A stretch of DNA of 64,000 nucleotides, from the NCBI GenBank assembly GCA_040756875.1, contig JBFLYH010000003.1, forward strand, positions 360,907 through 424,906, read 5' to 3'. The translations under genes were made by a program, and so were the position numbers. This stretch comes from a candidate division FCPU426 bacterium (lineage in GTDB: Bacteria; Oederibacteriota; JAAXVQ01; JAUVAV01). The stretch's first letter is position 1. Each line of letters starts with the position of its first letter. Of the stretch, positions 23,702 to 60,800 are shown in pieces. The notes below the pieces were generated by a model, which did not search any database, was not told where the DNA came from, and was given only the letters and a program-made list of their open reading frames with translations.

Positions 23702-24688
23702 TTACATCTCCAGCCTCAGGGTCACCCAGTGGTCCCACCCTTCGATGCGGTCGGTTTGCGCCGCGTAATCCAGGCGCAAGGCGATGCGTCCCCAGCCGAT
23801 GGAGGGTAGGCGCAAGCCGCCGCCGATTGCCCATGCGCCGTCCATCCAGCCGCCGCGCGCAAACAAAATCCGGTTGAAACCGTATTCCAGTCCGGCCCGC
23901 GTTTGGGGTACGCGCCGTTCGGAAAGCGTCTGCACCCCCTCAATGCTGACAAGCAGATCCTGGGCTTCCAGCCACGACCAGGCGTAGGCCACACCCAGAT
24001 GGATTACAGCGGGAAAACGGTCGCGGGCGCCGGTGGACCATTGCAAATCGGCATAGGCGTTCCGCAAAACCAGGGCCACGGTCAACCCGGAAAACGGCAG
24101 CCAGCGTGCGCCTGCATCCAATCCCCAGCCCGAGGCTTGTTCCCGCTCCAGCAAATGATAAAACCCCTTGAGGCCCAGGCCTACTGACAATTGCCGGTCG
24201 AAAAAAGGATGCCCGTAAGCCAGCCCATAACTGCCTTCGATATCCGAAAATAAATAATCCGGATTCAGCGAGTCAATGCGCCGGGCTTCCAGGGCGTAAG
24301 AGCCGGCGAAGCGGAGAATGGTCAGTCCCAGGGCGCCGAGCGGCAGGGAGCCCGTGCTCCCGGCTCGTTCGTCGGTTGGAAACGCGAAAGCGTTCAGCGG
24401 CAGCGCGAAATGCACCTGCGAATAATCGCCGCCGGCCGGAAGGGCCGCATACGTGCCCGAACCCTCGAGACGCGTCATGGACGCGAGGCCGGCCGGATTC
24501 CAGAAGCCGGCCGCGCTGTCCTCGCAGACCGCGGTGTACGCGCCGCCCAATCCCAGGGCCCGCGCATCCGCCCCCAGTTTTAGGAAGGCTCCCGCCTGTC
24601 CGCCGCCCGGTTCCGCGCGCAGGCCCGCGGCCAGGCCCAGGCAGATCAGGCAGCAGACCGCGGTTCCCAACCGCCGCGTCCAGGTCAT
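23702..24688 (-). CDS. PorV/PorQ-like outer-membrane beta-barrel, copy 2
   Basis: FLKLGADARALGLGGAYTAV.EDSAAGFWNPAGL, GWGLDAG, AGLEY, LDYA. ATGA overlap with the S8 stop. Confidence 0.82.
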   Translation of the reverse strand: MTWTRRLGTAVCCLICLGLAAGLRAEPGGGQAGAFLKLGADARALGLGGAYTAVCEDSAAGFWNPAGLASMTRLEGSGTYAALPAGGDYSQVHFALPLNAFAFPTDERAGSTGSLPLGALGLTILRFAGSYALEARRIDSLNPDYLFSDIEGSYGLAYGHPFFDRQLSVGLGLKGFYHLLEREQASGWGLDAGARWLPFSGLTVALVLRNAYADLQWSTGARDRFPAVIHLGVAYAWSWLEAQDLLVSIEGVQTLSERRVPQTRAGLEYGFNRILFARGGWMDGAWAIGGGLRLPSIGWGRIALRLDYAAQTDRIEGWDHWVTLRLEM

Positions 24689-31900: not shown

Positions 31901-34900
31901 TTTCGCTCGTGAGCGAAAGCTGTATGACGGGCTGATCCAGTTCATGTTCAAGTAAGGATCGCAACGTCGGACGTTTGGCCGCCTTGGGTTCTTCGGCGCT
32001 GACCGCAGCAATATCGACAAGCGGCATGGTTTGGGCTTGAACAGCGGCAATGCTTTTCGTGCTTTTTTCAGCCGTCAGGTGAATGAGCGGCGGCATTTCG
32101 GCGGCCGCTTCTTCGGTTGCCGGGCCTGCTAGCGGTTGCACCGGGGTTTCGCGAACCGTCACTTCAGTATCCAAATCCGTCCTCAGTTGCTTGGGTTGGT
32201 TGAGGCGGTCGATCAGACTTTTAGCCAAGAGCGCCGGGCCGGACCATAGCCACGCGTTTTGGCGGACAAAATCCATGACGCCGATCGAAATATCCTGGAC
32301 CAGTCCCGCCACGGTTGCCAGCATGAAGCGGCTGGAATTGGCGTGCTGCATGGTGAACCGCAGTATCTTGTTCTCGTTGTCAAATTGTTTGAGAAGATTG
32401 AGGTAATCGTTGAAGAATTTATATTCCGCATCCGTGAGCTTGGGATCGCCGAATGCGGAAATATAGACGTGATCACGCTCGGCGGCATCCAGATCCGCTT
32501 CCAGCTGTTGCATTTGCTGCTGTGTTACACCTTGCATCAAGGCTTGCGTCCCCAAATTGCCTTTGGCGCGCGCGCCCTCCAGCACGATCATTTGGTCGAT
32601 GTTGATGGGAAAACCCAGCCGTTCCCTTAAAAGCTGATTATAAATCTGGATTTTCAGGAAATTCTCATACATATACATGCTAAAGCGGTCACAGAATGTT
32701 TCCAAAGCAATAAGAATATTGATGCTGTCTTTGGTTTCTGCGCTGGCTGGTTTGTCGGACACTTTGACCAAGGCCTTGTAAATGTTCTTTATAAATACCA
32801 CACTGGTTTGAAGGCGGGGGTCGCTGTTGATCAACCGCAAATAGCTTTCCAGATTTATCGCGCGGAGATGGTCCTGTTCATCCACAGTCAGGTTGGCGGG
32901 AATTTCATCCGGCATATGCAGCACCAAGGCATGAACGGCCTCGTGCAGAAAAGCCAGGCTGATCCAGGCTTGCAGGGTTTGGAAATCCTTGGGAGCGGTC
33001 TTCTTCTGCCATTGCTGGGCGGCGAACTTCAGCAGTTGTTCAAAGGCGGGGGCGTTTTCCTCGGCCCGGGCCAGATAATCGGGCAAGGAATCGCGCAGGA
33101 TCTGGTACAAAGCATCCGGCCGCAATCCGTTCAATACAGCTTCGATATAGCGCGCCGGGATTTCTTTGTAGGGCATCTTCACATCCATCAATACGATCCG
33201 GAAAACCATGGTGGCCATTTCATTCTGATTGCGCGGCAGTCGGAACAAAGGCTCGCTGGCGATCGGGGCCGGTTGCACGTAAATTTGCTTCGGATCCTCG
33301 TTCACCTCTTCGTCCTTGGTGAACCAATCCACCAGCACCTGGTCGCTGAAACGGCGGAGTCCGTTGGCCTCCAGCAGCTGAAGCCAGGTCTCCACCATGT
33401 CCTCGGAAACGATTTCGAACGCGCCCGGCACGGGCCGTTTTTGATCTCCCTCGATAAGATCTCCGAATTTTTGTTTGATCCGTTGGGTGATGGCCCGCGT
33501 GCTTTCCTGGGCCCTGAGCATGGCGAAATCTGTCCCAAACTGGGCCTGCGTGGTTTTTTCCTGGCGTATCTCCCGGCGTCCCATTAACTTGGTCATCTGG
33601 GTGATGCCAAACACCCCGCCCATGGTCGTGCTGCCGAACAGGGTTTGCGCGTTCTGCATCATGTTCGCCGCAACAGCAGGGTCGTGCGTTTGGGGCATGA
33701 ACGGCAACACTTGCACCACCTGGTCCACCGCTGCCGTCAATCCTTGCAGATGCACCGCCAGGCCGGTCCGCACGGACAAAGACACGACGATGTCGGACAA
33801 GAGCGGCATAGCCAGGATGGGGATGGCCACCGCAGCAATGGCCAGGACCCCCAAAATCACGTTGCGCTTGGTGAAGAGCCGCTGGCCGAAATCCCCGGTG
33901 GCGTTCGTGGTCACCCACCAGGCGGCCAAAAGCATCAGGCTGCCGGTTGCCACCAGCAGAGCCGGAACCGCACTCGCGGTAAATCCAAGCAGAGGCAGGA
34001 CGATCCCCGCCAAGAGCCCGCCGGAAAGCAGCCACAAGGCGGAAATCCGCAGTTGGGTGGAATTGATGGCCGTCGGCCGCGCCGCATACGCCTCTACTTC
34101 CGTGCGGGAGAGAACCTGCAGGCCCTGGCGGTTGAATTGCAGGCCCATGATCGTCGATTGATCGTTCGCGCTGATCCTGACCAGGCGGTCCCGTAGGCGT
34201 TCCAGGGTCAAACCAGGCAGGCGGAGATAGGAACTGTTGCCGAGCCGTTGCAAGCCGTTCTCAATGAACCCGACCGCCCGTTGAAATTGCAGGCGGAAAG
34301 CCGGCAGCGTGAGGAAGTTGCGCACCGCCATGGCCGCCGGGCCGGCTGTTTGTTTGGCCAACAACTGCTCGAATTCGGTCGGCCTTTCCGGCGCCCGCAA
34401 CAGTTCGAAATAATTGGCCGAAGACTCGGCGCGGTCCATGGCCGGCCGCAGCACCACATAGGCCTGCCCGGCCTGCCGCGCCAAATCACGGATGGCTTCG
34501 GTATGATACCCGCCGGTGATCAATACGGCCCGTTTCTCTCCGCGATCCCTGAGTCGCTGCCAGGCATTCCGGAACAGCGCTGCGTCGCGCTGTGCGGCCA
34601 GGTCGTAAAATTTCATGGCCTGCTGCAGCAGCGCCGGCAGGGTATCTAGGTCGCGGGCCAACGTGGGGTTGTCGGCCACGAGCGCCTGCAAGCCGGCAAC
34701 ATTCACTTCCCGGCTCAGCGCCTGATACCGGTCCAGGTCTTCGCGGGAGGCGGACACGTTCAGGATGCGTTCAGCCAGTTCCACCCACTCCTGGTACTGC
34801 AGCAATTGACTCTCACCAGGCGTCCTTATAAGCCGGGCGCGCAATTGCGCTTCCAAATGCTGCACCTGGAGGTTGCGGGAATAGTAATCCCGTTCGACCT

Positions 34901-35705
34901 GGCGCTCCCAGCCGCGCAGGGATTCAGGATAGAGAGGCACTTGGGCCCGCCCGGCCTCCCGCATCAGATCCCGGCGGTAGGTTTCAGAATCCGCGTCGCC
35001 GCGCTGGTAAAATTTGCGGCGGCGCTCGAAGCTCAGCAACGGAGCGTTGAATTGCTGTTCCTGAAGAAAATCGAGTTGGTCCAAGAGTTCCTGCACCAAG
35101 CCCCGGTTCTCCTCGGTGGCGAATTGGCGGATCAGCACCAGGCTGCGTTCATACAAAGCCGAGTCTTCGGCGCCGAACAGTTCCAATTCCGGCCGGTCGA
35201 GAATGGCCAGCCAGTCCGCGCCGGTCAGCTTGCCCATGCGCACGAAATATTCGGTCACCGCCCTTTTGGCTGCGCTTTCCGGCATCGAGGACAGTTCCAG
35301 GGTCGGAATGATGCCGCTGCCGCCCTCGACCGCAATCAAGCGCAAGTCAGGATAACGTGCGCAAAGAGTATCCACCATGCCGCGGATATTGGTTTGAATG
35401 CCGGTATGACAGTGCAGATCTTGGATAAGAATGAAGGTCACCGGTCCGGGAAGGCCGGCTTCAGCCACGCGCCCCAAATGCGCAGGTATCTGGTATTCCG
35501 CTGCCAGCCGGTCACTGCCCGGACCTTCCAAGCGCACTCCTTGGCTGGGCGGCAACAGGTAGCTTTCAGCATTAAAAGCAAACCCAAGGGTTGGCATAAG
35601 AAAACTCAGTGCACATGCCAAGGCGATTACCCTAATCCCCGGGTGTTTTCTTGGCAAGATAGAAAGAAACAATCCGCCAATGCTGTTTTTGTTCTTCATG
35701 GTCAT
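28995..35705 (-). CDS. Giant membrane-associated protein (2236 aa): conserved N-terminal QDLH/GGxH domain, TM segments, HExxH zincin-like domain, low-complexity linker, basic -AA C-terminus
   Basis: Uninterrupted 6.7-kb ORF. The N-terminal ~470 aa align by eye with the 6130-aa neighbour. Contains FLHEAVH...LETFCDRF and ends RRKILRTGAAA. Confidence 0.8.
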   Translation of the reverse strand: MTMKNKNSIGGLFLSILPRKHPGIRVIALACALSFLMPTLGFAFNAESYLLPPSQGVRLEGPGSDRLAAEYQIPAHLGRVAEAGLPGPVTFILIQDLHCHTGIQTNIRGMVDTLCARYPDLRLIAVEGGSGIIPTLELSSMPESAAKRAVTEYFVRMGKLTGADWLAILDRPELELFGAEDSALYERSLVLIRQFATEENRGLVQELLDQLDFLQEQQFNAPLLSFERRRKFYQRGDADSETYRRDLMREAGRAQVPLYPESLRGWERQVERDYYSRNLQVQHLEAQLRARLIRTPGESQLLQYQEWVELAERILNVSASREDLDRYQALSREVNVAGLQALVADNPTLARDLDTLPALLQQAMKFYDLAAQRDAALFRNAWQRLRDRGEKRAVLITGGYHTEAIRDLARQAGQAYVVLRPAMDRAESSANYFELLRAPERPTEFEQLLAKQTAGPAAMAVRNFLTLPAFRLQFQRAVGFIENGLQRLGNSSYLRLPGLTLERLRDRLVRISANDQSTIMGLQFNRQGLQVLSRTEVEAYAARPTAINSTQLRISALWLLSGGLLAGIVLPLLGFTASAVPALLVATGSLMLLAAWWVTTNATGDFGQRLFTKRNVILGVLAIAAVAIPILAMPLLSDIVVSLSVRTGLAVHLQGLTAAVDQVVQVLPFMPQTHDPAVAANMMQNAQTLFGSTTMGGVFGITQMTKLMGRREIRQEKTTQAQFGTDFAMLRAQESTRAITQRIKQKFGDLIEGDQKRPVPGAFEIVSEDMVETWLQLLEANGLRRFSDQVLVDWFTKDEEVNEDPKQIYVQPAPIASEPLFRLPRNQNEMATMVFRIVLMDVKMPYKEIPARYIEAVLNGLRPDALYQILRDSLPDYLARAEENAPAFEQLLKFAAQQWQKKTAPKDFQTLQAWISLAFLHEAVHALVLHMPDEIPANLTVDEQDHLRAINLESYLRLINSDPRLQTSVVFIKNIYKALVKVSDKPASAETKDSINILIALETFCDRFSMYMYENFLKIQIYNQLLRERLGFPINIDQMIVLEGARAKGNLGTQALMQGVTQQQMQQLEADLDAAERDHVYISAFGDPKLTDAEYKFFNDYLNLLKQFDNENKILRFTMQHANSSRFMLATVAGLVQDISIGVMDFVRQNAWLWSGPALLAKSLIDRLNQPKQLRTDLDTEVTVRETPVQPLAGPATEEAAAEMPPLIHLTAEKSTKSIAAVQAQTMPLVDIAAVSAEEPKAAKRPTLRSLLEHELDQPVIQLSLTSETVASAPVQPARLGEDGSEAKRRTRQEADQTLSTSRFVQTMMDKNEDMVEAGRKEDQETQLVSFSQLPASAVTSEAPVASNDFATGVMAAETAGLVDTDLTGLPRYPADGVPPPGAFALPAEVRLPGQSNLVPVLSLGAQNAQTTVNTGTNAVNTQGLNQSVPGQELPGRSVAQAARMVAGLTEDGQLTLSPTGIGPSETQPYVPGGRSYFVPLLGGLAMPGSAKEQLLSEQRALYILGQAAQVLNTLPDGQTVTLGLDNPQLKARIDAMLESLRASGVGTGLADRIQTTLFPVDPATGQRLAPTDWRAPNSLAVLSEAGSNLSPLTVVIGRNGEATVGVKVPAIKMDEAQKAFAGKAGWDALLADHQRLLSQMRNQTELEGYLLVSAATVQQLQSTPGQVNNLLTSVVGFQAASQTGIQLPLTALRTAAQPALAQGAERVVVDFNQSAYRALERAARTGAQGVLLFGLSEVALASLAGYDFNSLFMQSLFNADTLETSSVASAVERDDLQEELGLESEALTQWQQEARSFVMEQLGEQAAQGLSDRQLNAQAEALLGLDAVTTVISDKALANRLLRLRGQEVAEPPSLFASDVFYRFKRGRMVSQPRMNVEAWSPEMKVTAHEQKRGMAKVVSALLLGFAAGSLVMDTLAQVARTRDRQGRRLPLFRVITHPDFVKSLQLMVRVVFGERRAMESLSPLLRQQIQDLQGLIEKQRVLETLQPGEVPVSLKYSLSQFVRFNRFLSNHSVFKLLMNLVRIQNLVPLYPELFALLSESDQLQSVMFYFAPATTLQRHFNQLEGAHPGLKANLTRSADQAKQELAQLRAEQQQLLKNPEASAARLAQVAVAIKDRRFSLLLQRALDRLERDITPYNLQRVVTLLMREVSRRDVADFEAYQESLFQVMTRIEPFQQFPVQVLLDSGKVIQTTLPASIYNTHLRDDLLFFLDVFDTQGKPLPPVRRKILRTGAAA

Positions 35706-44800: not shown

Positions 44801-47800
44801 CGGACGCTGTTGTTGTTGCGACCATTCCTCGGCCATGCGTTGCCGCAGGATCCCGCGGGCTTGCTCGACAAAGGGGCCGTAATACTGCCCTTCCAATTCC
44901 AGCAGGTAGGTGGTTTCCGGGGTGATGACGGCAATGTGCACTTTGTCCGGCCCGCTGTCCGGCGGCGCCCGGCTGACGTGCACTTCGGGCTGGAAATCGC
45001 CGCGCCCGGCCAGCACGGCCAAGCGCTGCGCCACCAGTTCGCGGAACCCCTCGGTGGAAAAGTGTTTCGGATAAATGGCGTCGTGCTTGGGTTTGTCGCC
45101 GCTCCGGAGGATCATGTTGTCCTCGTAGAGCAGTTGTTGCCGCAGCAGCTGGCGGCCGTGCGCGTCGCCCAGCACCGGGGCCTCGGCTTTCTTCTCTTTG
45201 GCCTGAATCGGCTTCGTCAGGTCGTCCACCACCACCTGGTTTTTGCCCGCATCCTTGGCCACGTGCAGAAAATCGCCAGCCAATTGATATAAAGCTTCGC
45301 TCCAGGCTTGCACCTCCGACCGGCTCAGCTCTCCGGCCGCCTGTTTCTCGACGTAGGCGAAGTCCACGCGGGAGGCTTTGGTGGCGCCGATGGAAAGCGT
45401 GGGCGTGAGGAAGTATCCCTCCTGCAGGTACCCGTATCCCTTCTGGTCAATGGGCGGTTTGAAATCTTCGGCCTCCCGGGGCCAAGCCATTTTCGTCAAA
45501 TTAAGGTTTTCCAGGCGGGCGGTCTGCAACCCAGCTTGTTCGAGGCGTTTCTTGAAAATCTGTTCAAGCAAGCGGCCGTTGACCTGATCCGCCGGCACGG
45601 GCGCAAATCCCTGCAGTTCCCGCTGGAAACGGCCAGCCAGGTCGTTGCGTCCGACGCGCAGCAACAGCCGCACGCCGTACACTTCGTCGAAAGCCACCCG
45701 CGCCAATTTGGGATCGCCGTAATCCTCGTTGATTTTAGCCGCGATAGCCCGCAATTGCTGTTCTTCCTGGGGTTTCAGCCCCCGCAAATCATAGGCCATG
45801 AACTGGCGGTGCATGTTCAGCTGCACCCGGCTGCGGAACAGGCGCATGATCTCTTTGATTTCCTGGGGAGTGAAATTTTCGGGCATGAGATACAGGCCCT
45901 CGTCGCCTCCGTGCCGGATGGTCGTCACCCGGGTTTCAGCCAGCTTGGGCAACAGCTTAAAGACCTGACGGAAATGGAGCGTAAGCAGCGCGCCCAGCAG
46001 CTGCCGCCTCACTGCCTGCCGCTTCTTTTCCAGGATCAGCTTTACCGGCCTGGAATTCGCCGTCTCCTCAATGATGCCGAGCACGTCGTCCAGCAGGAAA
46101 TTCGTTATGGATTTGCCGTAAATGAGGTTGTAGCCGGACAGCCCGTCGATGTCCGAAAATCCCAGCCAGGCGTCGCCGGCTTGCTCCAACATCTGCCGCC
46201 GGGCGTTTTCACCCTGGATCCGGTTGAGCATACGGTTCCGCTCGCGCGCCATGGACCACAACCGGCCGATGGCCGAGCGAACCACCCTGGACTTGCGGAT
46301 AATGCTCTGCTGCGCGGTGCCGAGAACTTCGGCCAGGGTGAAATTGCCCGTGTCCAGCACCACAGCCTCCGGAATCGGGCGGAGGGGATCACGCGACCGG
46401 GTGCGGGCTGAGAGGTCCATGTTCTCGATTTCCTTCAACCCAGCGGCCAACTCCTCCTCGGTGCGCAACGGGCGCTTCAAGAGCCGTTCCGCGCGGTTCC
46501 GCAGATCGTTGTTCACCACGTAGAAGCGCATTTTGGCGTCCCGGTCGAACAGCTTGGTGCCCATGGTCTGCCCGACCGCCACTAGGTTTTCCCGTTTGGC
46601 CAGGGCGCGGAGATGGTCGTCCACCACTTTTTGGACCGCCGGAATCCGTCCCAGCCTGGAGGCCAGGGATTCGAGGCGCTGGAAATCCTCTCCGGCCGCG
46701 TTGACGGCGTTGGGCAGCACCTGGTCCGTCACTTCGCGCCGCCGCCCTGGAAAAGCGCCTTCGCGGAGGAAAACCCGCATGCGCTGTTCTCCCAAGGCGC
46801 GGTCGAAATAAACCGTGACATTCGCCTGCTGCAAACGGTCCATGACGATCTTGGTGAAGGTGGCGAAGGCTTGCTGCTCGGCGGGCGTTTCCGCGCGGAA
46901 AGCGTCCTCGGTCCAATTCCCCTTGTCGATCTCGTCCTTGACGATGAGCGCGAACGCCCGGTAATAAATAGCCGCATCCGCGTAGGTATAGCCAAAGTAG
47001 CGCGACAAGACCTCGCCGATTTCAGTTTTTCCCGTGGCATCCGGTCCGTCCACCGTGATGATAAATCGCGGTTTGAAGAAGGTCGCCACGCTCCACAGCA
47101 GGGGCACCAGGCCCGAGCCGGCGAGCGTCACGGCGGCCGCGGGTGCGACCAGCCCGGTGGCAATGGCCCCCACGGCCAACAGGGTGGCTAGAATGCCTAT
47201 CACCCCCACGATCGCGCTCAGCACGCGCGTGGGCCAGAATATTTCCCGGGCCAGGGACTGTAAGAACGGCTGTGTGCCGAGGCTGTAGGCGGACACGGCT
47301 TCCAGGTCCGCCACGTTGCGGTGGTCAAGGCCCAGCACTGACTCCAGCAATTCATGCAGCAGGGCTTGCGGCAGCTGGCGGTGGGCCATGACATTGACGA
47401 AGCCCACGGGCCCGGCCGGCGTTTCTTCCACCGTGAAAAAGGCCCCGATCTTGAGGGCCTCGGGAGAAACCGACGCCTTGGAAGTAATCTTGCGAATTTG
47501 CAGATCCGTGATGGCCCGGTCCTGGCCGTTGACCTTGACGGTCAAGCCCTGCCCGCTTTCCAGGGACTGGACCGCGGCCTGGGCTTGGTCGAGCGTGTTC
47601 TCGAAGACCGTGCCCCGCAGGCTGCGGCGCAGGCGATTGATTTCCTCGGACAGTACCTGGCGGGTATAGAGCCCGGCCCGGGTTTCGGCCTTGTGGCCGA
47701 AGGAGGCGAAAAAGGCGTTCAATTGCTCCTGATCCAGCAGATCGAACCCGCGCTGCACCAGCGTTCGCGCCAATTGCAGGGTGTTCGCGCCGGGAATTTG

Positions 47801-50800: not shown

Positions 50801-53800
50801 GGCCAGGATTTTGGCGATCAGGCCGGCCCGGATTTCGCCGATGCGCGTCTGTTCCAAACCGGCGATGTGCCCGCTTTCGTGCGCCAGGCGGCGCAGCAGC
50901 TGCATCTTGCCGCGGTTGTTTTTCAGCTGGTCCAGGGCCTTGGCATTGAGAACCATGCGGTTGCCCTGCACCTCGGAAAACGCCTGGCCGTGTGCCAGTG
51001 CATCCATTTCACCCGATAGACGTACCTCGAACTCCTTGTCGCCGCTGGCCTTGAAGGCGGCCATGATTTCCGAGAGTTCGAACGCCGCATTCGGATACTG
51101 TTGCAGGCGCTGCTGGAGTTCAAACCGCTCCTGCTGCTGGGCCGGCGTGGGTGCGGCGATGCGGTTCAAGAAATTCAACCGCCGGTTCGAAGCCCGGCGC
51201 TCCTGATCCAGCGTCCGCTGCGCCGCTTGCACGCGTTTCACCAACTGCGAAGTTTGCAAAATGACGCGTCCGTCGGGCCGCATCTGGAATCCCAACAGTT
51301 TCAGGCCGTCGGTGACAATTTGGCGCTGCCCGTTGTCGGCCACCTGGCCCAGGGGCGTGGCGCGGTCCATGATTTGCTCCAGGGTCAGCGCTGAAGTCCC
51401 GGCCCCGGCCGGTCCCAGCAGGGCGTTGTCGGGTTTGCGGCTTATATTCAGGTTGATCACCGGAGCTTCGGCGACTTCCTCTTCCACCGGAGTCTCCGCG
51501 CTGCTGCCGGCCATGATTTCCTGGCTGGCGGCGGTCATGGGCAGTTCGGCGCCCTGCAGCAGATCGGCGTCCAATTGCTGGGCAAAATTCAGCAATCCCT
51601 GGCGGATGGAAGCGATTTGAAGCTGGGCCGGGCGGAAAAATACGATCGGATTGAAACTGAAATTGGGGATCTGGACTTTCAGGTTGTTCTGCTTGGCCAA
51701 CTGCCTCATGGCATCTCGCTGGCGGTCGCTGGTAAACTCCGGCAGCAGGCGTTCGGGGCTCAACACATCCTGTTCACCCAGCTCAAAACTACGGCGTCCC
51801 GCGCGGATGGCCTGGACCAACTGGGCCAAATGCGAACCCGCGCTTTTCAAATCCAGACTGTCCAGAGACGTTCCGGCCAAAACAGCCTCCGCCAGCTCCT
51901 CGGCCTCGTTGTAATCCCGCACCAGACGGTTCAGGTTGTCCGACGGCGTAACCTCGCCCAGCAGGGGTAGGCGGCCGTTCCGGAAGGCCATGCCTGCCAG
52001 CGCGAGGCGTTCGGCGCGGCCGGCAATGAAGGCTTGCAGGGTTTTGTCGTCTTTCGACAGATCCAGAACGTTTTGCAAATCCACTTCCAATTCCGTCCGG
52101 TTCACCTGGTTCTGCGCATAACCGTACTTATCCAGCGACCACAGCATGGCCCGCTCCACCAGGCGCTGCTCCGGCCTGAAATACCCGCTCATGCGGGCGG
52201 TGACAACGGACCAAAGAGTGGCCGCCGGCCTGAATAATCTTGCCAAGGCCGCAACAAGGGAGCGCGCCGCCGATACCGGCGTCAGTCCCCGCAATCCCTG
52301 GGGCGCGCCCCAGGCAATGGCCAGCGTCCCCAGTGCCCGGGTGATTGGGTTGGTGACTTCCGCCACCTGCGCCGCAAGCCGGCTCAGGGCGAAGGCACCG
52401 GCGCGTGCAGGTTCCTCAGTGCCGAGGATCTGCGCGCGCTTCTGGGCGAACTCGTCGGCGCCTACGAATTGGAACTGGAAGTTGTTGCCGTAGAGCACTT
52501 CCCCGGACAGCTCCGTGGTGTAGGCCGTGGTGGCGTTGGGTCTTACGACCACGTACCACCCGGCCTCCTGATCGAACTGGAAGACAAAAACATTAGCCGC
52601 GGGATTGGATTGCTCGGGCCTGAAAACCAGGCTGACCTTGGCGTCGTCCTCGGGATAGTTCCCGCGCGCCTCGCGGAACGCCTGTTGCAGGGCATCGCCG
52701 GCAAGCTTGTCTTCCAGCACCAATTTGCGCCCCAACTCGATCTCCCAAACCGTTTCGAGATAGCGTTTGAAGACGGGATTGTTGAAAAGGCTGCGGGGAG
52801 CGAAAATATTTTCATTGCGGGCCAGCAATTTCTCCAAGGGGGTGCGCTCATTGCGCAGCAGCGAAAAATAGGGGTTGGCGACGTCCGTACGCGTCAGGCG
52901 AGGTTTAACGGTCAGGAACGAGACTCCCTGGGTCCGCAGGACGTTTTCGACATGCGAGGCGTGAAAACCGCCCGTGATCAGCACGGCCAAGGACGTCTGG
53001 TTCTTGCGCATGGCCTGCATCAGGTTTTCCACAAAAGCCTGCGAACGCTGATCAGCCACGCGGTAGAAATCCGCGGACAGGTCGAGGTATTCAACCAGCT
53101 TGAGTACACCCGGGTCCAGATCCGGCTGCAGGGCGTACCGGTAACTGACGTTTTCCAGAAAATGCAGCATGGACTCCAGCGTGAAATCCTCGCGGTGGCC
53201 TCGGAAGTAGCGCAAATCCTCTTCGGTCGCGCTGATGTTGATGAGGTTCTCCATTATTTTCAGGACGTACAGCTGATGGTCCAACTGGCGTTGCTCGTCG
53301 CTGGTGTACAAGCGCTGCCGGACAGCCCGGTCCAAAGCCTCGGCTTCATGCAGCAGACGTTCGTAGTCGACCACCGCGTTCACGGGCAGCCGGTGCTCCA
53401 AGGCGTACAGGCGGATGACTTTGTACGGTTCCAGTTCCACTCCCAGCCGGTTGGCTTCAGCCAGCAGGAAATCGCAATACTTTTCGAGCGTCTGGTTTTC
53501 CTGGTCGAAATTCTCTCGTTCATGGTCCATTTTGGCCAAATCCGTGCTGTAAATCGGGCGTTTGAGTTGTTCGAGGGCAAAACGCAAATCCTGGCAGTAG
53601 CCCTGGCTTTCCTCGTTCAGGAATTTCATCAGGGTGTTCTGGTTATGATCATAGAGCGCCTGGGATTCAATGCCCTGCAATACCAATGGTTCCGCACCCG
53701 TGGCAGCCTGGTATTCCGCTCCGGTTATGCGTCCCCGCTGGAGGAAGTACTGTCCGACTTTGTCCTTGACCGGCGATAAGGGGATACGGGCAAGTTTGTC

Positions 53801-54220
53801 GACATTCACCGGCGTGCTCTCGCCTTCCACGCCGACCACGCGCAGACGGTTTTTCCTGCCCAGTTCCGCCAGCATGGCTTGGATGTTGCTTTGCACTTCA
53901 TAATTGCAATGCAGGTCCTGAATATACACCACGGTTTTTCCCGAAGCGCCCTGGTAACTGCTGGTAACGCGCCCCCATTCAGGTTTGATTTCGATGGATT
54001 GCCCGTTGGCGGCCAGCGGGGTATAGCGGAATTCCTCGATTAAACTTTTCGGATAGGTGGCCGGCTCAAATGCGAAGGCTACGGAGGGCCAGATGAATCC
54101 CAGGGATATCATCAAGGCCAGGGTTTTAGCGATTGGCAGGCGGCCAGGACGGCGCCAGGCATCCAGACTGGCTACGGCTGGCACGGGTGTTTGAGCTGCG
54201 GATGGTTTCATCGAAGACAT
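35828..54220 (-). CDS. Giant multidomain membrane protein (6130 aa): QDLH/GGxH domain, HExxH motifs, 2 cytidylate-kinase-like, split GGDEF-like, HAD hydrolase and RelA/SpoT-like domains, multiple TM clusters
   Basis: Uninterrupted 18.4-kb ORF with a GAAGGGAG SD. Motifs read directly: ITVDGPDATGKT, SDIDG...RHGGDEG...TLSIG...AKDAGKNQV, LTDWTGT...ATGR...GENGA...GDS...ND, GRVKE..SI...DDVVG...GY...EIKI, ITMGGPSGTGK. Confidence 0.85.
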   Translation of the reverse strand: MSSMKPSAAQTPVPAVASLDAWRRPGRLPIAKTLALMISLGFIWPSVAFAFEPATYPKSLIEEFRYTPLAANGQSIEIKPEWGRVTSSYQGASGKTVVYIQDLHCNYEVQSNIQAMLAELGRKNRLRVVGVEGESTPVNVDKLARIPLSPVKDKVGQYFLQRGRITGAEYQAATGAEPLVLQGIESQALYDHNQNTLMKFLNEESQGYCQDLRFALEQLKRPIYSTDLAKMDHERENFDQENQTLEKYCDFLLAEANRLGVELEPYKVIRLYALEHRLPVNAVVDYERLLHEAEALDRAVRQRLYTSDEQRQLDHQLYVLKIMENLINISATEEDLRYFRGHREDFTLESMLHFLENVSYRYALQPDLDPGVLKLVEYLDLSADFYRVADQRSQAFVENLMQAMRKNQTSLAVLITGGFHASHVENVLRTQGVSFLTVKPRLTRTDVANPYFSLLRNERTPLEKLLARNENIFAPRSLFNNPVFKRYLETVWEIELGRKLVLEDKLAGDALQQAFREARGNYPEDDAKVSLVFRPEQSNPAANVFVFQFDQEAGWYVVVRPNATTAYTTELSGEVLYGNNFQFQFVGADEFAQKRAQILGTEEPARAGAFALSRLAAQVAEVTNPITRALGTLAIAWGAPQGLRGLTPVSAARSLVAALARLFRPAATLWSVVTARMSGYFRPEQRLVERAMLWSLDKYGYAQNQVNRTELEVDLQNVLDLSKDDKTLQAFIAGRAERLALAGMAFRNGRLPLLGEVTPSDNLNRLVRDYNEAEELAEAVLAGTSLDSLDLKSAGSHLAQLVQAIRAGRRSFELGEQDVLSPERLLPEFTSDRQRDAMRQLAKQNNLKVQIPNFSFNPIVFFRPAQLQIASIRQGLLNFAQQLDADLLQGAELPMTAASQEIMAGSSAETPVEEEVAEAPVINLNISRKPDNALLGPAGAGTSALTLEQIMDRATPLGQVADNGQRQIVTDGLKLLGFQMRPDGRVILQTSQLVKRVQAAQRTLDQERRASNRRLNFLNRIAAPTPAQQQERFELQQRLQQYPNAAFELSEIMAAFKASGDKEFEVRLSGEMDALAHGQAFSEVQGNRMVLNAKALDQLKNNRGKMQLLRRLAHESGHIAGLEQTRIGEIRAGLIAKILAGYQLGIADYTAEIGNVNRRAILGETVELPLAAVGPASEIALTDGERETMSTWFNARGWTEVSIDTLATYTGGLSAGQLESLVPGRTTEKTHQDGVKLLAQLSQALAGMDSRFYSGADLLETFKLTLQGLSLDAAVTKHIQDLKTYAQDVVPAEFSAYETARAPIRTTDGVRELVRMAFDGEEGLALTPALTLMVERVASDEAAKFTEANYAVEFALNFDARAAAVLKDLPVALQPQARQLLQATLDKALASQPGTMAKLIDRKLQTQVPTPEAAIGALRDFGRFFRSNFQETGFADQADAVRNSLRRIGQDLLRQTASQQVIRLFGNKAPPSQEELSRFLPADYPLPFLADKLANDPRFQQIFSQYTSQAVWFLGNATKTQGYVTALKQLQDAANAAQSRREAIRGNLQQALDQIAWFFDTADWAEVEQMALALYRMQYARNLADSLKVPLEQVASDRSLASQTALAAELNIVADELAALRQAQGGQTASLARLAQAAHEQAVAALPQTRPLALVGPRRAGRVVEDEQKQLMAGVRQAFNTALQQYQSGKYQRTRLIELLDEAEQLMATLVNRYSDDPDVLALQGNLTEQKRLLVQTLNFEDFARRNPEYVKALDSLKQQVRDTTGTVGWSDFLTYAAASGQIVSRGGVPHATYSNPNADNIAQAQFAGYMRVAMINGQTVLCVDNGSSHYQRPGFRGAEAQFLAGIRGMRQALAALGFTQVALFPGHALEGMTRFDPSQIVGVIDLKNGQARASKDIATPVEIEGFEAVETRAADLQPESPAEYAEYIRSRAEAAANAVRPFLAKAEDAAAVEAYLRGLSPENFEVRTTERISGALAVHRQAGGKLQVIAERQLEGDLKKSTILHEAVEAALRSQGIAEAHALAFVVEQELAPESLRAKLSQTTHYDEVHLRNVVANTADVISAVDREPGGTPALKQRQKENALLVARVARSLLQEQQRVRALALDRRGFYGEETQSALSTLLAVFLNSQKELRDRLFKQIPGANTLQLARTLVQRGFDLLDQEQLNAFFASFGHKAETRAGLYTRQVLSEEINRLRRSLRGTVFENTLDQAQAAVQSLESGQGLTVKVNGQDRAITDLQIRKITSKASVSPEALKIGAFFTVEETPAGPVGFVNVMAHRQLPQALLHELLESVLGLDHRNVADLEAVSAYSLGTQPFLQSLAREIFWPTRVLSAIVGVIGILATLLAVGAIATGLVAPAAAVTLAGSGLVPLLWSVATFFKPRFIITVDGPDATGKTEIGEVLSRYFGYTYADAAIYYRAFALIVKDEIDKGNWTEDAFRAETPAEQQAFATFTKIVMDRLQQANVTVYFDRALGEQRMRVFLREGAFPGRRREVTDQVLPNAVNAAGEDFQRLESLASRLGRIPAVQKVVDDHLRALAKRENLVAVGQTMGTKLFDRDAKMRFYVVNNDLRNRAERLLKRPLRTEEELAAGLKEIENMDLSARTRSRDPLRPIPEAVVLDTGNFTLAEVLGTAQQSIIRKSRVVRSAIGRLWSMARERNRMLNRIQGENARRQMLEQAGDAWLGFSDIDGLSGYNLIYGKSITNFLLDDVLGIIEETANSRPVKLILEKKRQAVRRQLLGALLTLHFRQVFKLLPKLAETRVTTIRHGGDEGLYLMPENFTPQEIKEIMRLFRSRVQLNMHRQFMAYDLRGLKPQEEQQLRAIAAKINEDYGDPKLARVAFDEVYGVRLLLRVGRNDLAGRFQRELQGFAPVPADQVNGRLLEQIFKKRLEQAGLQTARLENLNLTKMAWPREAEDFKPPIDQKGYGYLQEGYFLTPTLSIGATKASRVDFAYVEKQAAGELSRSEVQAWSEALYQLAGDFLHVAKDAGKNQVVVDDLTKPIQAKEKKAEAPVLGDAHGRQLLRQQLLYEDNMILRSGDKPKHDAIYPKHFSTEGFRELVAQRLAVLAGRGDFQPEVHVSRAPPDSGPDKVHIAVITPETTYLLELEGQYYGPFVEQARGILRQRMAEEWSQQQQRPLEEVLADPVLERTLDETMASYVIATRDGVNYNRFKLVNDAIGYTAGDQMIGLPHLILDLNGLNLLRQPGRMNRKLPGVLSELEKEINDPQSGNQAHVVLTAVFSEMPTKQAAKRGLGRLFSDLRVASMAKQGKITAYQPTLRQPALVTQMGLAVTRLQGMFAEPGAQRRMVEEVEAAETAPRTRGFRPRSLFLMLFALIAAGFMAVSTPNVSAWAQGAQPNIRVDTEQVELIKKAPATRSYSLALEGRQQQLEVPVEAGDRAVSSHMTMTSPLGSHVALILEKTSADIDKFRAAKVRAQALVKKQLARLQGQEEPADPREINTWRSLDRTLSALNPGEVQLHAPVTLEGQELGAFLVNGRTYVPAGHLNDPELLAYDLVHENLHPAVRSAYGQIGDNAEENRVLKFGVDAFGSMLKVSLGFGETGLQISVHSIDPNLSADNPEIERAIQGALLAAWRQILEQKAQGQTVDQDFANALSLEMEKRGMPIPTQLEAKPGQGGFITAPLAGVLTGASAVVAGTTAIIATGTATLLTGGLVAAGILLILGMGAVITGLPTRTTLSKLAKVVNPAGFARLAKRVIDFIRGNPMIVLLAAIGIYSLLAQHPAEGGVIFAAAGMVVGPGDKKTQVENKVAALVRAHPELAAVVPQLTEALLRHQEHLKTANKFESLHAALKGLKDYDAAVIVQLIADRPQYFVHFVQVLENYQRKGGFADFAEVQLFIGQMNRMIQRTGQNAARLLSLLASNRQLAAIRDRGIEAVADMVDELGLDALSRLEQQIKESAQEQYFLAYESLQVARYLERIIDAATAPVLICENVAYGMFVTQPLKQHIQEYAAQKGKQVEFIRTRARSGMSHTNPPYIADRLFYREDADARMAPEDDITPQILRRLMTEAPHVVVLDGSKNQRYPDGFQQFSNLSVLLNSVLNPGLPSQDVLELSKKSRASHAEEALRDRNNRELLARLRELKPGATQVVYDVQYWTPDGRALPTRRDKIFDSLQRNYENFRERPGQREIILINATVNNASIPLWLRKFMAMDAPEMGRKDHRPGYFEDFYAFANKTFYARVQELFGKLRRQQPTREAEAVPALDPIRPDLNLSPAQVLNIFFDAMTAVLLTQRGAPVAVDERDGRTELLPTSKLLALLPEVERKMWEERLGQTYKGMLTDWTGTMEEKDIAQALQEGKYVGLATGRIMTASSMAKTIKQLQAYGATEQDLERLRIYGENGATKWQVRSGQPVEDAAYRRTLQPGDINLLEQLLASYPDKKVSEGQGYFNVSCRSRDKAFELARFITRQFPRLQRQYAMYVEGKDLRIYPWDVTKRRAAEDMAADLGIDTTELFLAGDSVGSIFDNDLPLVADSGFNVGSVRSPLWGVSVRRALNQPLNAMAATRALLARVRILRADEFQARPARAAPVASPLDGTPDEIRDFLERRLAWRGPHGAFVNDLMQALYSLGSPWRSQRMLRLTRAMIIAWLADRYSEVLPELSTVMDQFGLTEAERLFVLRSAEEHVLTTLSGEFFKDRPLETTLAYFWNRLLQTKEKRDAEIASVAQTASQPEGRTPRLGERGTASLSLVMGLAGGSFLAVGLGYLIYTAVFLGAGTAALFGAGAVLLGVGLLAGAAAFLSAFQKLRLRVAALRETAWPVLRRHLQRAVDFVRGNPMIILLAAIGIYALLNQQPAGGQFILAAGMVGGLGKDTIVRDRYKIPQRVSGQRRVEKLLSDGEPAALAVAEIDSFSDLKDIYGQDIAEFIYEKTLQILQGYLGRNIFFFRPENTSARFAIATKLRNDKEFSRLLQDVQSYLFYSFNRRYRVVTLQYFDLDNQARTISERDFNIRLSQLRNAVREFGHGAVGITEGRQVHVVYEISAQKDLQHALEVAGILQPSGTSADTLAAMPFEVESKIGLHAGYLYVPKLSMGVAGAEAYDKALAQVPTRQGEVRSQMPGRDLFRVLEKAATDALAAFARPLGGEIVFAVNLEQEANGQAQEAKEFISPEWSLLNFNIRNDQIFQRWFVNTAQRLASESDDKLAAIDALRQLYHDNQEALEDMDFDYLGVIFLNARQVIEEMRQMGHYALPDAERKFWEITLLWEQRHGGGMVDQYLDRHPELRPAMARLRRLIDPARREKEMERLREDLRSFADQVDLDMLVAPGRVKEPFSILMNFLRYWNKAMPAKPDFSDTDIYNERNVKKIVDDVVGTLLVIPHVDQIEKAVNQLIPYLEAHGYRIKVVDGQKAAGVNVSITQGADGRIKIEQITDGYFDVKIKIAPVDPMAFGAEIKILPNFLDESATRPGYTLVKQDVIKAVDWIITMGGPSGTGKIEAAWKLAQSLSYRVIDVGLVYRGIVSVYEKFLAAGKADSFEEFVKRAKFRLTAEGLTADYNRKGAAKETMAFNRNELAGETTESSELTVGAKIFRDQRQLLDTLVSRLVQNSAQKGRVIVVGQTPEQYVKRTDIRVYFDLTAKDRKSTEPQSRMPVPTDALIISPETQKSASRTVRMIEQMIADTIMSRGIVRQAVLGRKNGDYQALSLRNTLVVAAVWIGILSLGLGLPLLPSLGLGLLYPSAKLATAFRLLRAKYGFPGLLRHVGEPVGAYDPKIEKMVDPQTGAVLGEADWPIAWHEGFSHAAAQRLLRVFGINMASMPTGTFRYALVAGLAEFLTHTLDTLTAPMAFARLRTGPRWDAVVLSGVFLTSGLLLAASFFVALPAAVPVALGAVFALAGLSVAGFRGVLAPRAAEPADAETAAGTTAEAQPLQEIIATVRQDQNLGVTAQPGTTVWQRLRLRFVESGLGRAIIQMRGLPAGLKLMLLLPRPQNNFWGRAAVIGLSLAAWAGISLALVNGAGVNMAASFVLTGLTVLAPGFAFQYRLRTMAATPASRAIARSAWLEQIVLALNRSRDSVQVSLLLQELLGVLNEVKDDPVAREAVLDILSSLPSNQKNVTLQMADGSQFSRQLPMAVLEKPNLLIRFKRIFPVIKIDNQIWEAPQPRQRRAVDSAA

Positions 54221-57827: not shown

Positions 57828-60800
57828 CTATTCGCGCACTTTGGGCGGTTCCTGGATGAGTTCGTCGTCGAAGTGCTTGCCTTGCAGTATTTCTTTCTGC
57901 GTTTTGATCGCCTCGGAAAGTTCCTCCAGCGGCTCGCGTTCCTGCGATTGGCTGACGACCTTCATGCGGCCCCCGTCTTTAGCCAGCACATTAAGCAAAC
58001 GCCCGTGTGCATCATATTTATATATGCGTTCCTCCTCTTTTTTAACCAGCCTGACATCCACTGTTTCGGGTTGCTTGTTGGCGTTCCATTTGTAAGTAAC
58101 ATCCAGTTTGCTTCCATCCTCAAAGGTGGCGCTTTGCAGCCAGCCTTGTTCGTATCGAGCTTCACTTTCGGTCCGGCCGTCGGTTGTGATGAATTTCACG
58201 ACGGTTTTCGTCCCCGAAGGATAGGCAAATGTCTTGGTGCCACCTTCGCTCCTGGCCGTTTGTACCACCCTACCTTCGCGGTCCAGTTTCTTCTCGCCCG
58301 CGTCGTCGGTATGCTGTTCACGTCGCAGACTGAGGCGGTGTGTCTTGACGAGTTCGTCGAATCCCCGCTCGTTTTTCGCTTCACTCGGGCGTTGGTCACG
58401 CGGCTTTGCTTCACCGGACGACTGCGTCTCCCCGGATTTGGCCGCAGCGCCGGCTGCCGTTCCTTGGGCAGAGGCGGCGGCCACGCCTACGGGTTTGATA
58501 TATCCCAATCGTTCCGGATTAATCACCCAACCTTGGCGGGCCTTGCCGCTGGCTGAAGCGGTTTCCAACGCTCCGCCCAAGGAGACGCCTTCCCCGGCGC
58601 GCCGGGCACCCGTCCGTCCGCCCTGGCCGCTGGCCAGCATCCCGCTTACATCGGAAACGGTTTTCGGCGAATCCAGAACGCCGGTCAGCCATTCTTTCAC
58701 ACCGGCCGGCGACAGGTACACTCCCAGCTTGCTGCGCGATTGCCTGCTCAACAGTCCGGCCAGGGTTTCGCAGAGTATATCCATTCTCCTGGCCCGCAGC
58801 CGGGCATCCTGCAAATCCTTCAGTTCATGCGCAGCCTGGCTCAGCATGGCCCCGGCTGTTTTTTGGTCCGCTGCCGGCAGCGTGAATTTGATCCAATCCT
58901 GCAAAACAGCCGTGCTGGGAGCGCGGTCCGTGAGGCAATAGGCGCGCGTCAGGCTGGACCGCGTCAATTGCTCTTCGCTGAGATGCGCTCCGGAAAAATA
59001 ATAATAAACACCGTCAACGGTCTGCCAGAGAAACTCCGTTTTATCTTTGGCCCGTTTCAACTCCTCGTCAAACGTCGCTAAATCGGCGTATTGATAACTG
59101 GCGATGCGTTTAAGGCTCATGGCTTCCCCGGTTCTGGAAAAATGCAGGAGCAGATCATCCAAGCTTTGAACCACGCCGGCATACTGGCCCTTCAGTTCTT
59201 CCGCATAACCTTGCCGGGCCAACAGGGATGCCATTCGCTTTTGGTCCACGCTGTGGTAGTCCGCCTCGGTGGCGTCCCGCTGCTTGACCGAAGCCGCCAC
59301 GATGCCGCCGGACTTGGTTTTGCTCCGGGCCAGCGCCACACCCGTCGGCCGGGTTCCCTGCAGGTGGCTTAGAATCCAGTCATCGCTTTCCGGAGCGTGT
59401 TTCGGGCCCTCGGTCTTGGATTCTGAGCCGCCCACGCCTTTATTGTGCGCCGCCTGATCCACGACATATTGTTCCTCGCCGCCCAAACAAGCGCCGCTGT
59501 TGTCATACCCCTTGGTGCATTTGAAAATATAGTGGCCGATCTCGGCGTAGTGGACGGTCCCTGACCACGACGAGTCGGTGGTCCACGAAAGCATATCGCC
59601 GCGGTCATTGTGCTTGTAGGTGGTCACAGATTTCCAGCTCCCGCCCAGGAATTGATTGCCGTATTTATCGGGCGGATCAGCCGGGATTTTTCCAGACCAC
59701 TCGGTGTATTCCTGGTCGCCATACTGGTTGAACCGCGAAAAGCCGCTGTCCTTGCCGTTGGATTCGGTCCGGTAGGTGACAAACCCGCGGCTGTTGTAGG
59801 TATTGGTATACGTGGTGGTGCCGTCCTTGGTTTGGACCTTATTGGCCGCGCCGTTATGGCGGTGGTCATACCAGGTGGTGGTGGTCCCTTCGTCGCCTTC
59901 ATTCACCGTTTGATCCATCCAACGGCCGGAATAATAATAGGTCGTGCTGCCGTTGGGGCCCGAGCTGCTTGCCGCCCGGTTGTTGGCCATATCCATGACC
60001 GTGGTGCCGTTTTTCGAATAAGAATGAGTGACCTCGCCGGCCGCATTAAAAGCGTTGACCGTGACGTTCCCCCGCTCGTCCGTGGATTTGGCGCTGGAAA
60101 TATCCATTTGGGCGTCGTAATAATTGACGGTTTCCGAATGCAAACCGACGGTCGCCTTGAACGAACTGCGCAGGGCCAGTCCGTTGTCTTCGTACCAGGT
60201 CTGGGTGCTGCCGGTCGCGGCCTGGCTGAGGCTGTAGGTCGGCATTCCGGTCAAGCGGTTGTTGGTGTAGGTGGTGACCGTGCGTTCGCCCCATTCATCG
60301 ACCCGCTCGGCTTTTTCCAGGAACCCGTCCAAGTCGGAATACTTGTGGGTTTTGCCGTGGGCGTCCGTGGCGATCGCATACAGCGGCGATCCGGTGTAGG
60401 GGTTCCAGGTCTGCACGCGGGTGGTTTCGGTCACGATAAAATGAGCTCCGGTATTGGCGCGCGTGGCGGTCGTGTTCAAGCCCTCGGCGTTGTATTGCGA
60501 GGTGGTCTGCCCCTTGCGGTCCACGCTCGCGCTCTGCAAGGGCATCCCGGTCTGTTCGTCCAGCGTGTTGGTGGTGGTGATGGTGCGGATGGCCCCCAGC
60601 AAATTGTCGCGCCGGGAGGAAGTGATCCCATATTCATTATGCTGGTTTCGGGTCGTGCCGCCCTCGTCTTCCACCAGGCTGGCTTCGATCAGCCCGGTAT
60701 TCGTGTCGCAGACAAACGCCGTTTGCTTCTCCTTGTAGGCGCCGAACGAACTCAAGGCCACCGAACTGACCGGAGTGCCGTATTCCGGATCGTTCTGCGT

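Follow-up and report, generated by a model that had tools for sequence, protein, structure and literature searches.

Why should two giant proteins encoded side by side begin with the same domain? The 64,000-nucleotide stretch of a candidate division FCPU426 genome analysed here (the window) raises this question with two adjoining open reading frames (ORFs) that encode proteins of 6130 and 2236 amino acids (aa) and share an N-terminal stretch, which we call the head. With moderate confidence, we favour the reading that the head consists of a Sec signal peptide and a divergent, catalytically intact domain of the Tiki/EreA/ChaN superfamily, most likely acting in cis or locally as a maturation step. 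The initial annotation, made from the letters of the sequence, had placed a shared N-terminal domain at 52850-54130 (aa 31-457 of the 6130-aa protein), where it saw TIKI/TraB/EreA/ChaN-like catalytic motifs and a possible autoprocessing protease.

The sharing itself is borne out. When the first 600 residues of each protein were compared by BLASTP, aa 25-485 of the 6130-aa protein aligned with aa 18-471 of the 2236-aa protein (138/471 identities, 29%, E 6e-48), and in the full-length comparison the similarity was confined to the first ~480 residues. The common module comprises a Sec-type signal peptide followed by a domain of ~430 aa. The motifs IQDLHC, VEG, YF...G[RK][IL]TGA, L.G.E...LY, [DA]QR..A...N and AVLITGG[FY]H, all read from the sequence in the initial annotation, are present in both proteins, as is F..P...FAF (aa 42-51 and aa 35-44, respectively). 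Two further motifs, V.VEG and NPYF, stand for the 6130-aa protein and not for the 2236-aa protein, which has IAVEG and ANYF at these places. Judged from the sequences, the similarity of the two heads is far beyond chance. The module recurs well outside this pair: a profile (A1) built from 35 homologues found it at 11 sites of the 3.22-Mb genome to which the window belongs, with E values down to 5e-196, and in 10,178 clusters at E<=1e-3 (7,118 of them at E<=1e-30) among 1.84 billion representatives.

Models of the two heads were made with AlphaFold2 (AF2) without templates, for aa 41-490 of the 6130-aa protein (predicted local distance difference test, pLDDT, 87.5; predicted template modelling score, pTM, 0.83) and for aa 36-490 of the 2236-aa protein (pLDDT 84.2, pTM 0.84). 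Both show a small parallel-strand alpha/beta core split by an all-helical insertion of ~220 residues, whose helices occupy model residues 147-366 of the 6130-aa head (DSSP) and which alone matched only generic helical bundles in a structural search. The alpha/beta core with its parallel sheet is like that of the solved members of the superfamily in both heads. In an exhaustive structural comparison with 48,161 PDB representatives (VIA-align), the only chains at Z>=8 for the 6130-aa head were HopBA1 (5t09, Z 10.0, 168 aligned residues at a root-mean-square deviation, rmsd, of 4.0), EreC (6xcq, 9.0), 2qgm (8.7), ChaN (2g5g, 8.5) and 2rad (8.1). For the 2236-aa head they were ChaN (9.6), HopBA1 (9.6), EreC (9.3), 2qgm (9.0) and 2rad (8.4), followed by PMT (2ebf, Z 7.3, rank 6) and RRSP (5w6l, Z 7.1, rank 8), the latter matched over chain residues 3862-4058, its catalytic C2 domain. 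All five chains at Z>=8 are members of the superfamily with either model, as the EreA/ChaN/TIKI-type fold suggested in the initial annotation had led one to expect; neither head proved to have an unrelated fold, and EreC and ChaN stood at Z 8.5-9.6.

Could this likeness to Tiki proteins be convergent or generic, the head being an unrelated three-layer alpha/beta domain? We regard this as very unlikely. There is indeed no significant sequence or profile link, the best Foldseek match of the head model (EreC) has an E value of only 0.012 and a template modelling (TM) score of 0.21, weak on its own, and the Z scores of 8-10 are middling, unrelated generic alpha/beta folds coming next at Z 6-8 with both head models; yet two separate models single out five chains of 48,161 at Z>=8 that all belong to one small superfamily, with PMT and RRSP next. 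Four catalytic positions, moreover, follow one another in the order and, to within one residue, at the distances seen in RRSP and Bcr135, and the commonest weak Pfam match is ChaN, on the R...GGxH segment. Re-alignment of the Foldseek list added 3b55 (Z 8.4) and also a subunit of Tetrahymena complex IV (Z 9.0, rmsd 7.0), the single outsider. This mitochondrial subunit (8b6h_DQ, 8bqs_DQ, 7w5z_E) matches both heads at Z 7.0-9.0 and rmsd 5.2-7.0 A, and may be a Tiki/TraB-like protein.

The catalytic residues are where the superfamily would have them. An active site lies at the strand ends of a parallel sheet. In both models, a beta-strand ends 1-3 residues ahead of each His and Glu concerned, and the long helix that comes before the last catalytic strand carries the Arg; the location of these residues at the C-terminal ends of adjacent strands suggests that they form one site in three dimensions. 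Both heads carry the 2His/2Glu pattern ([E/D]-x-H, a Glu about 28 residues further, G-x-x-H) described in PMC6254334. In RRSP, the essential residues are E3900, H3902, E3930 and H4030 ('2His/2Glu') together with R4001, and in Bcr135 the His-Glu pair is H85/E113 (PMC6254334). The H104-E132 spacing of the 6130-aa head (+28) equals that of RRSP H3902-E3930 and of Bcr135 H85-E113, and a conserved Arg, which in RRSP precedes the second His by 29 residues (R4001-H4030), precedes it by 28 in both heads (R392-H420 in the 6130-aa protein, R373 in the 2236-aa protein). The claim that D/E-x-H, E, R and G-x-x-H occur in superfamily order is thereby upheld, with the spacing of RRSP and Bcr135 kept within one residue and the residues invariant in 175-179 of 179 heads.

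These 179 heads (2 window proteins, 7 paralogues and 170 database proteins) were aligned with MAFFT. H104 is kept in 175/175, E132 in 179/179, R392 in 178/178 and H420 in 177/177, as are G417 and G418 (177/177 each); D102 is found in 172/175 (with Glu in 2 more), and position 185 is Glu in 174/179 and Asp in 5/179. Such invariance argues for a working enzyme, given that PMT, with the same fold but no catalytic motif, is inactive (PMC6254334), and it supports a catalytic site that is intact and apparently active. Whether the enzyme would need a metal is less easily predicted from its relatives, a metal being required by Tiki and not by RRSP or the Ere enzymes (PMC6254334). The neighbouring position is also well kept: Cys105 occurs in 170/176, the distant short members having Ala, Thr, Ser or Gly there. 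This cysteine adjoins the catalytic His and is retained in proteins otherwise poor in cysteine (0.10-0.25% in the five largest head-bearers vs 0.53% in the other frames of >=1000 aa). The motif that closes the head is likewise conserved (Y451 in 173/175, P450 in 159/175, E463 in 157/172), in a region (aa 446-470) of lower model confidence (pLDDT ~70-75).

The PMT case has another side, since it also illustrates how the fold can occur without catalytic motif or activity (PMC6254334), and ChaN (2g5g) is among the best structural matches of both heads (Z 8.5 and 9.6) and the sole Pfam family with any signal. One may accordingly picture the head as a non-catalytic binding or anchoring module, holding a cofactor or haem as ChaN does or serving as a folding plug that keeps the N-terminus outside; its conserved residues would then be there for binding and not for hydrolysis. 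It would then be hard to see why the full set of two His, two acidic residues and Arg is invariant in 175-179 of 179 heads, the very set that separates the active members (RRSP, Bcr135) from the inactive PMT (PMC6254334), and we hold a purely non-catalytic role to be highly improbable.

The sequence models tell less than the fold. No Pfam or NCBIfam model reached threshold on either head. The only Pfam signal in the 6130-aa head was a sub-threshold match to ChaN/Cofac_haem_bdg (PF04187, 'Tiki superfamily') at aa 382-424 (E 0.11-0.3; 11.5-12.8 bits vs a cut-off of 27.7), and the same family was the commonest weak Pfam match among the 35 members of the profile (6/35, best E 0.0068, always sub-threshold), again on the R...GGxH segment. 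PF05139 (erythromycin esterase) was absent from the Pfam matches at E<=10 of both heads and the 35 members, and no significant sequence or profile match to any member family of the superfamily was obtained. The ChaN family was found in 0 of 99 genomes of the phylum in a search whose control was likewise found nowhere. TraB genes occur in another family of the phylum (7/99 genomes, 0 of them with the head), and an ESM Atlas look-up led to an Omnitrophota cluster (score 0.93). Membership of three families was considered and rejected: TraB/PrgY/GumN, for want of a PF01963 match and because the first motif is Q-D-L-H, not G-x-x-H; the Ere family (PF05139), to which no model match was found and the likeness is structural only; and the ChaN family, for which PF04187 stays below threshold. 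Since the TraB, ChaN and Ere sequence models fail while fold and site match, the head is filed here as a new, very divergent family of the Tiki/EreA/ChaN superfamily, belonging to none of the three.

The head is most likely exported, because its signal-peptide pattern is conserved and its distant members (530-870 aa) have ordinary Sec signal peptides. Signal peptides were called from column counts and hydropathy, without a dedicated predictor, and their cleavage is a predicted one. The 6130-aa protein begins with a basic n-region (R23, R24, R27, K32) and a hydrophobic segment at aa 33-51, the corresponding segment of the 2236-aa protein being aa 26-44; across the head-bearers, a hydrophobic core of 15-19 residues follows a basic n-region. 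In the family alignment, K/R is found at position 32 in 150/167, P at -6 in 151/168, T/A/S/G at -3 in 153/168, W/F at -2 in 157/168, A at -1 in 148/168 and F at +1 in 145/166, so that a basic n-region, a hydrophobic core, a breaker near -6 and small residues at -3 and -1 are all in place, as in a Sec substrate of signal peptidase I. This conserved c-region pattern explains the F..P...FAF that the initial annotation had noticed at the end of a signal-like segment. Export would agree with the usual site of Tiki, ChaN and PrgY/TraB (for PrgY, PMC7117660).

The head recurs on other giants, both in this genome and elsewhere. In the window's genome it leads open frames of 12,551, 12,450, 10,037, 8,807, 6,158, 2,613, 2,248 and 1,271 aa, and 3 more at contig ends. 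When the window giants were compared by BLASTP with the 111 frames of >=1000 aa, the bodies proved unrelated and only the head was common (28-39% identity). Within the phylum, 15/99 species genomes carry it, namely 11/11 of the window's family and 4/4 of the sister family. Each carrier genome has from 7 to at least 14 matches, on open frames of up to 13,678 aa; at E<=1e-10 the remaining 84 genomes have none. Of the 150 best database representatives, 149 have a match that begins no later than residue 47, and in one (P0123) it begins at residue 105. The 132 newly listed head proteins, many of them cut by contig ends, are up to 7,768 aa long, with the median at 2,574 aa, and the homologues are labelled as coming from Firestonebacteria, FCPU426, Endomicrobiales, Elusimicrobia and Omnitrophica. 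A seemingly stand-alone head (P0040, in a gene of 662 aa) was not retained as such: same-strand ORFs of 693 and at least 1315 aa come next, and a relative 66% identical to it is fused into an ORF of at least 2615 aa. The four smallest contigs of the assembly (C4-C7, 5.8-20 kb) consist almost wholly of pieces of giant open frames, one of them starting with a head; since the assembly breaks inside giant genes, the count of giants is a lower bound. Twice in the genome a large head-bearing giant has a smaller one coming directly after it on the same strand, once in the window (6130 + 2236 aa, 28995-54220) and once on contig C2 (12,450 + 2,613 aa, 52442-97805).

What, then, would an exported hydrolase do at the front of every giant? 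As the first part of the giant to be exported, it would fold at the outer face of the cytoplasmic membrane, where water activated by the His-Glu pair would break a peptide (or ester) bond, the mechanism proposed for the Ere enzymes, RRSP and Tiki, with the Arg and the second His holding the substrate or the oxyanion. Its task would most likely be a step of maturation, carried out either on the polypeptide that bears it or locally, where that giant does its work. A quite different role is conceivable for the same chemistry: the head could be an active Tiki-like hydrolase acting in trans outside the producer's cytoplasm, on envelope material, on signal-peptide-derived peptides (as for PrgY/TraB) or on a host or prey surface. 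It would then sit at the N-terminal tip of each giant, far from the membrane, and would leave the giant itself unprocessed. Most characterised relatives do act in trans, Tiki on Wnt, Ere on macrolides, PrgY on pheromone (PMC7117660) and RRSP on Ras (PMC6254334). The 6130-aa protein has no hydrophobic segment from the signal peptide to aa 2327, by hydropathy, which would let the head reach far, the bodies contain no repeated motif resembling a cleavage site, and related lineages (Omnitrophota) are thought to be episymbionts or predators. A generic enzyme, on the other hand, needs neither fusion to every giant nor ~10 active, diverged copies per genome, and the strict N-terminal position (149/150) and the special C-terminal tail (7/7) point to a role tied to the giant. 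Action in trans is in our opinion a real possibility, if a minor one; a cis or local role is the more likely because each giant keeps its own diverged (28-39% identity) but intact copy.

Several observations weigh against a cis-acting, Tiki-like maturation enzyme. No recurrent junction motif was found in the giant bodies of the genome. PF01963 (TraB/PrgY/GumN) has no match anywhere in the genome at E<=10, PF04187 never reaches its curated cut-off among the 35 members, and sequence searches of the PDB, started from a single head or from the family profile, returned only chance matches (E 0.6-1.8). When the head alignment was compared by hhalign with an alignment of 8 TraB sequences of this phylum, the probability was 0.3; the two lobes (N and C), each compared by itself, aligned in a wrong register and without significance. 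Z scores of 8-10 are only 1-2 units above those of generic alpha/beta folds such as methyltransferases and signal recognition particle GTPases, and because they are middling, the structural case is carried by the coherence of the matches and not by the scores; the clustering of the catalytic residues is inferred from strand positions. Finally, the giant bodies contain cytoplasm-type domains (cytidylate kinase). In the 6130-aa protein the first hydrophobic segment after the signal peptide is a hairpin at aa 2327-2364 directly preceding the first cytidylate-kinase domain (aa 2388-2638), which a crude hydropathy count puts on the same side as the exported head. Such a placement of an ATP-using kinase is puzzling.

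The search for processing signals in the bodies was extended to short words. R-S-E-x-R tags are not enriched (1 in 61,594 residues of head-bearers vs 4 in 174,866 residues of other long frames), and the words of 4-6 residues found enriched de novo are helix-cap-like only, TPEQ (9 vs 0.48 expected) and LSPE, with no junction tag among them. The opposite ends of the giants are more regular. In all 7 complete head-bearers of the genome, a basic stretch leads up to a final x-A-A (GSAA, STAA, GQAA, AQAA, DSAA, GQAA and GAAA), against a baseline of 101/4,946 frames of >=200 aa ending in AA; the 1,271-aa head-bearer ends in DQAI. In the family as a whole, 66/170 proteins end in AA and 18/170 in SA, many others being truncated. 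A sample of 19 giants with the head, taken from four related genomes, includes 9 with a final AA and 4 with a final SA. About 45 C-terminal residues can be aligned among the head-bearers. The genome also encodes a headless giant of 6963 aa (contig C2:1078294-1099182) with a similar signal anchor and a ...TGSAA tail, in which an acidic low-complexity region stands behind the anchor in place of the head.

It is tempting to see the head as the dedicated cis protease of each giant, and head and tail as opposite ends of a single, hitherto undescribed system by which giant proteins mature. The head would then cut the emerging polypeptide into working pieces, or would trim or dock the basic ...x-Ala-Ala C-terminus, an ending which recalls ssrA-like or PDZ-ligand C-termini. 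We consider this fuller scheme doubtful. A prediction of the complex between the head and the 60-residue C-terminal tail, made without controls, returned a score of 0.00 (mark 0.32), which speaks neither for binding nor against it. If it were true, thousands of Omnitrophota-, Elusimicrobia- and Firestonebacteria-like giants would be self-processing polyproteins, a strategy so far known, to our knowledge, mainly from viruses.

Among known systems, the Ere family (EreC 6XCQ/6XCS; Bacillus cereus Bcr135/Bcr136 2RAD, 3B55, 2QGM; PF05139) gives the best or near-best matches (Z 8.1-9.3, 152-185 aligned residues), with which the head shares an alpha/beta core bearing a large helical addition, a His-Glu pair 28 residues apart (H85/E113 in Bcr135; PMC6254334) and a second His. 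The Ere enzymes, however, are stand-alone cytoplasmic esterases of ~400 aa, whereas the head follows a signal peptide and leads proteins of thousands of residues. RRSP of MARTX (5W6L), taken here together with the C1/C2 part of PMT (2EBF), resembles the head in its essential residues, which run [E/D]-x-H, E at +28, R and H at +28/29, and in belonging to a giant, multi-domain exported protein. The Z scores (7.1 for RRSP, 6.3-7.3 for PMT) are lower than those of Ere, ChaN and HopBA1; RRSP is an internal effector module delivered into host cells, where it cuts Ras, in contrast to a head that is always the first domain and that every giant of the family carries. PMT, HopBA1, Bcr135 and ChaN are placed with RRSP as structural members of the TIKI superfamily (PMC6254334). 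ChaN (PF04187, 2G5G) is extracytoplasmic and the sole Pfam family with a sequence signal, but it is a small haem-binding lipoprotein, and the head scores below its cut-off. HopBA1 (5T09), a type III effector of Pseudomonas syringae that causes plant cell death, aligns over 168-174 of its 217 residues (Z 10.0 and 9.6) and differs in being a minimal core without the helical insertion.

Similar in layout are Tiki1/2 and the PrgY/TraB/GumN proteins, in which an extracytoplasmic Tiki-type domain stands right behind a signal or anchor and is tethered to the membrane by later helices; they differ in the first motif (G-S-I-H in the TraB alignment, Q-D-L-H in the head) and in the lack of a PF01963 match to the head. 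Tiki1/2 are believed to act at the membrane surface, where they would trim N-terminal or signal-peptide-derived peptides. The same is believed of PrgY (PMC7117660). In the giants of Omnitrophota, C39 and S8 peptidase domains, of other folds and catalytic types, likewise stand next to the signal peptide, and these N-terminal peptidases have been proposed to cut the giants into pieces (West-Roberts et al. 2023, 10.1101/2023.11.21.568195). The accessible parts of this preprint and of a second one on giant genes (10.64898/2026.06.07.730766) describe the bodies, with C39/S8 in some, and mention no common front end; nor do they mention Tiki, TraB or erythromycin esterase, the supplements lying outside the search. 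We found no paper that links the TIKI superfamily with giant proteins or Omnitrophota with a polyprotein, and none that describes the head, which is unannotated.

The giant genes found in uncultured bacteria that probably depend on hosts are still puzzling, and a head present in more than 10,000 protein clusters, with no model at threshold, offers together with the conserved tail a handle common to the whole class. It can serve as a marker to find and delimit giant genes, its active site is a concrete, mutable target for asking whether giants are processed, and it adds a large new branch to the Tiki superfamily. Even if the head were merely a trans-acting secreted hydrolase, the finding would remain a useful annotation. 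The features of both proteins are listed in Table 1.

Table 1. Positions in the window of the two giant ORFs and of the features of their heads and tails.
Feature	Protein	Residues	Position	Strand	Basis or remark
Giant ORF (P0003)	6130-aa		35828..54220	-	uninterrupted ORF
Giant ORF (P0004)	2236-aa		28995..35705	-	ORF list
Signal peptide	6130-aa	1-50	54071..54220	-	predicted cut after V-A-F-A50
Signal peptide	2236-aa	1-43	35577..35705	-	predicted cut after G-F-A43; family c-region pattern
Tiki/EreA/ChaN-like head	6130-aa	51-480	52781..54070	-	AF2 model and structural matches
Tiki/EreA/ChaN-like head	2236-aa	44-470	34296..35576	-	AF2 model and structural matches
All-helical insertion (~220 aa) between core halves	6130-aa	187-406	53003..53662	-	DSSP of model
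Conserved end-of-head motif D..NPYF.LL....TPLEKLLA.NQ	6130-aa	446-470	52811..52885	-	
First catalytic motif, D102-L-H104	6130-aa	102-104	53909..53917	-	just after strand aa 96-102
E132 (V-E-G)	6130-aa	132	53825..53827	-	+28 from H104; just after strand aa 128-131
E185 (G-I-E)	6130-aa	185	53666..53668	-	just after strand aa 180-183
R392 (D-Q-R)	6130-aa	392	53045..53047	-	long helix before last catalytic strand
Second catalytic motif (G-x-x-H), G417-G418-F-H420	6130-aa	417-420	52961..52972	-	after strand aa 411-417
D96-L-H98	2236-aa	96-98	35412..35420	-	aligned with D102/H104
E127	2236-aa	127	35325..35327	-	+29 from H98
E180 (G-A-E)	2236-aa	180	35166..35168	-	
R373	2236-aa	373	34587..34589	-	
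H401 (T-G-G-Y-H)	2236-aa	401	34503..34505	-	+28 from R373
C-terminal tail, ending ...RQRRAVDSAA	6130-aa		35831..35965	-	tail alignment
C-terminal tail, ending ...VRRKILRTGAAA	2236-aa		28998..29132	-	tail alignment

The surroundings of the two giants are less telling. The next genes downstream of the 2236-aa giant, also on the reverse strand (24685-28871), encode a ClpB-type AAA+ chaperone and an S8 subtilase with a FlgD-Ig-like domain. The linkage looks coincidental, since no ClpB-like or S8 paralogues stand beside the other giants of the genome, whose neighbours are not conserved. Upstream, a third long ORF of the reverse strand (57828-63998) runs off the window and reaches 2246 aa in the genome; head and Ala-Ala tail are both missing from it, and it matches no Pfam family at E<=0.01.

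As for the bodies, a self-BLAST of the 6130-aa protein revealed no internal repeats at E<=1e-3, and its only Pfam domains are two cytidylate-kinase domains (46307-47059 and 37490-37894, reverse strand; E 1e-20 and 9e-6), while no Pfam family matches the 2236-aa protein at E<=0.01. Lone H-E-x-x-H words occur in these otherwise unannotated bodies (HESGH, HENLH and HEAVH; aa 1114 and 3520 of the 6130-aa protein and aa 921 of the 2236-aa protein), and could be zincin-type sites or chance occurrences.

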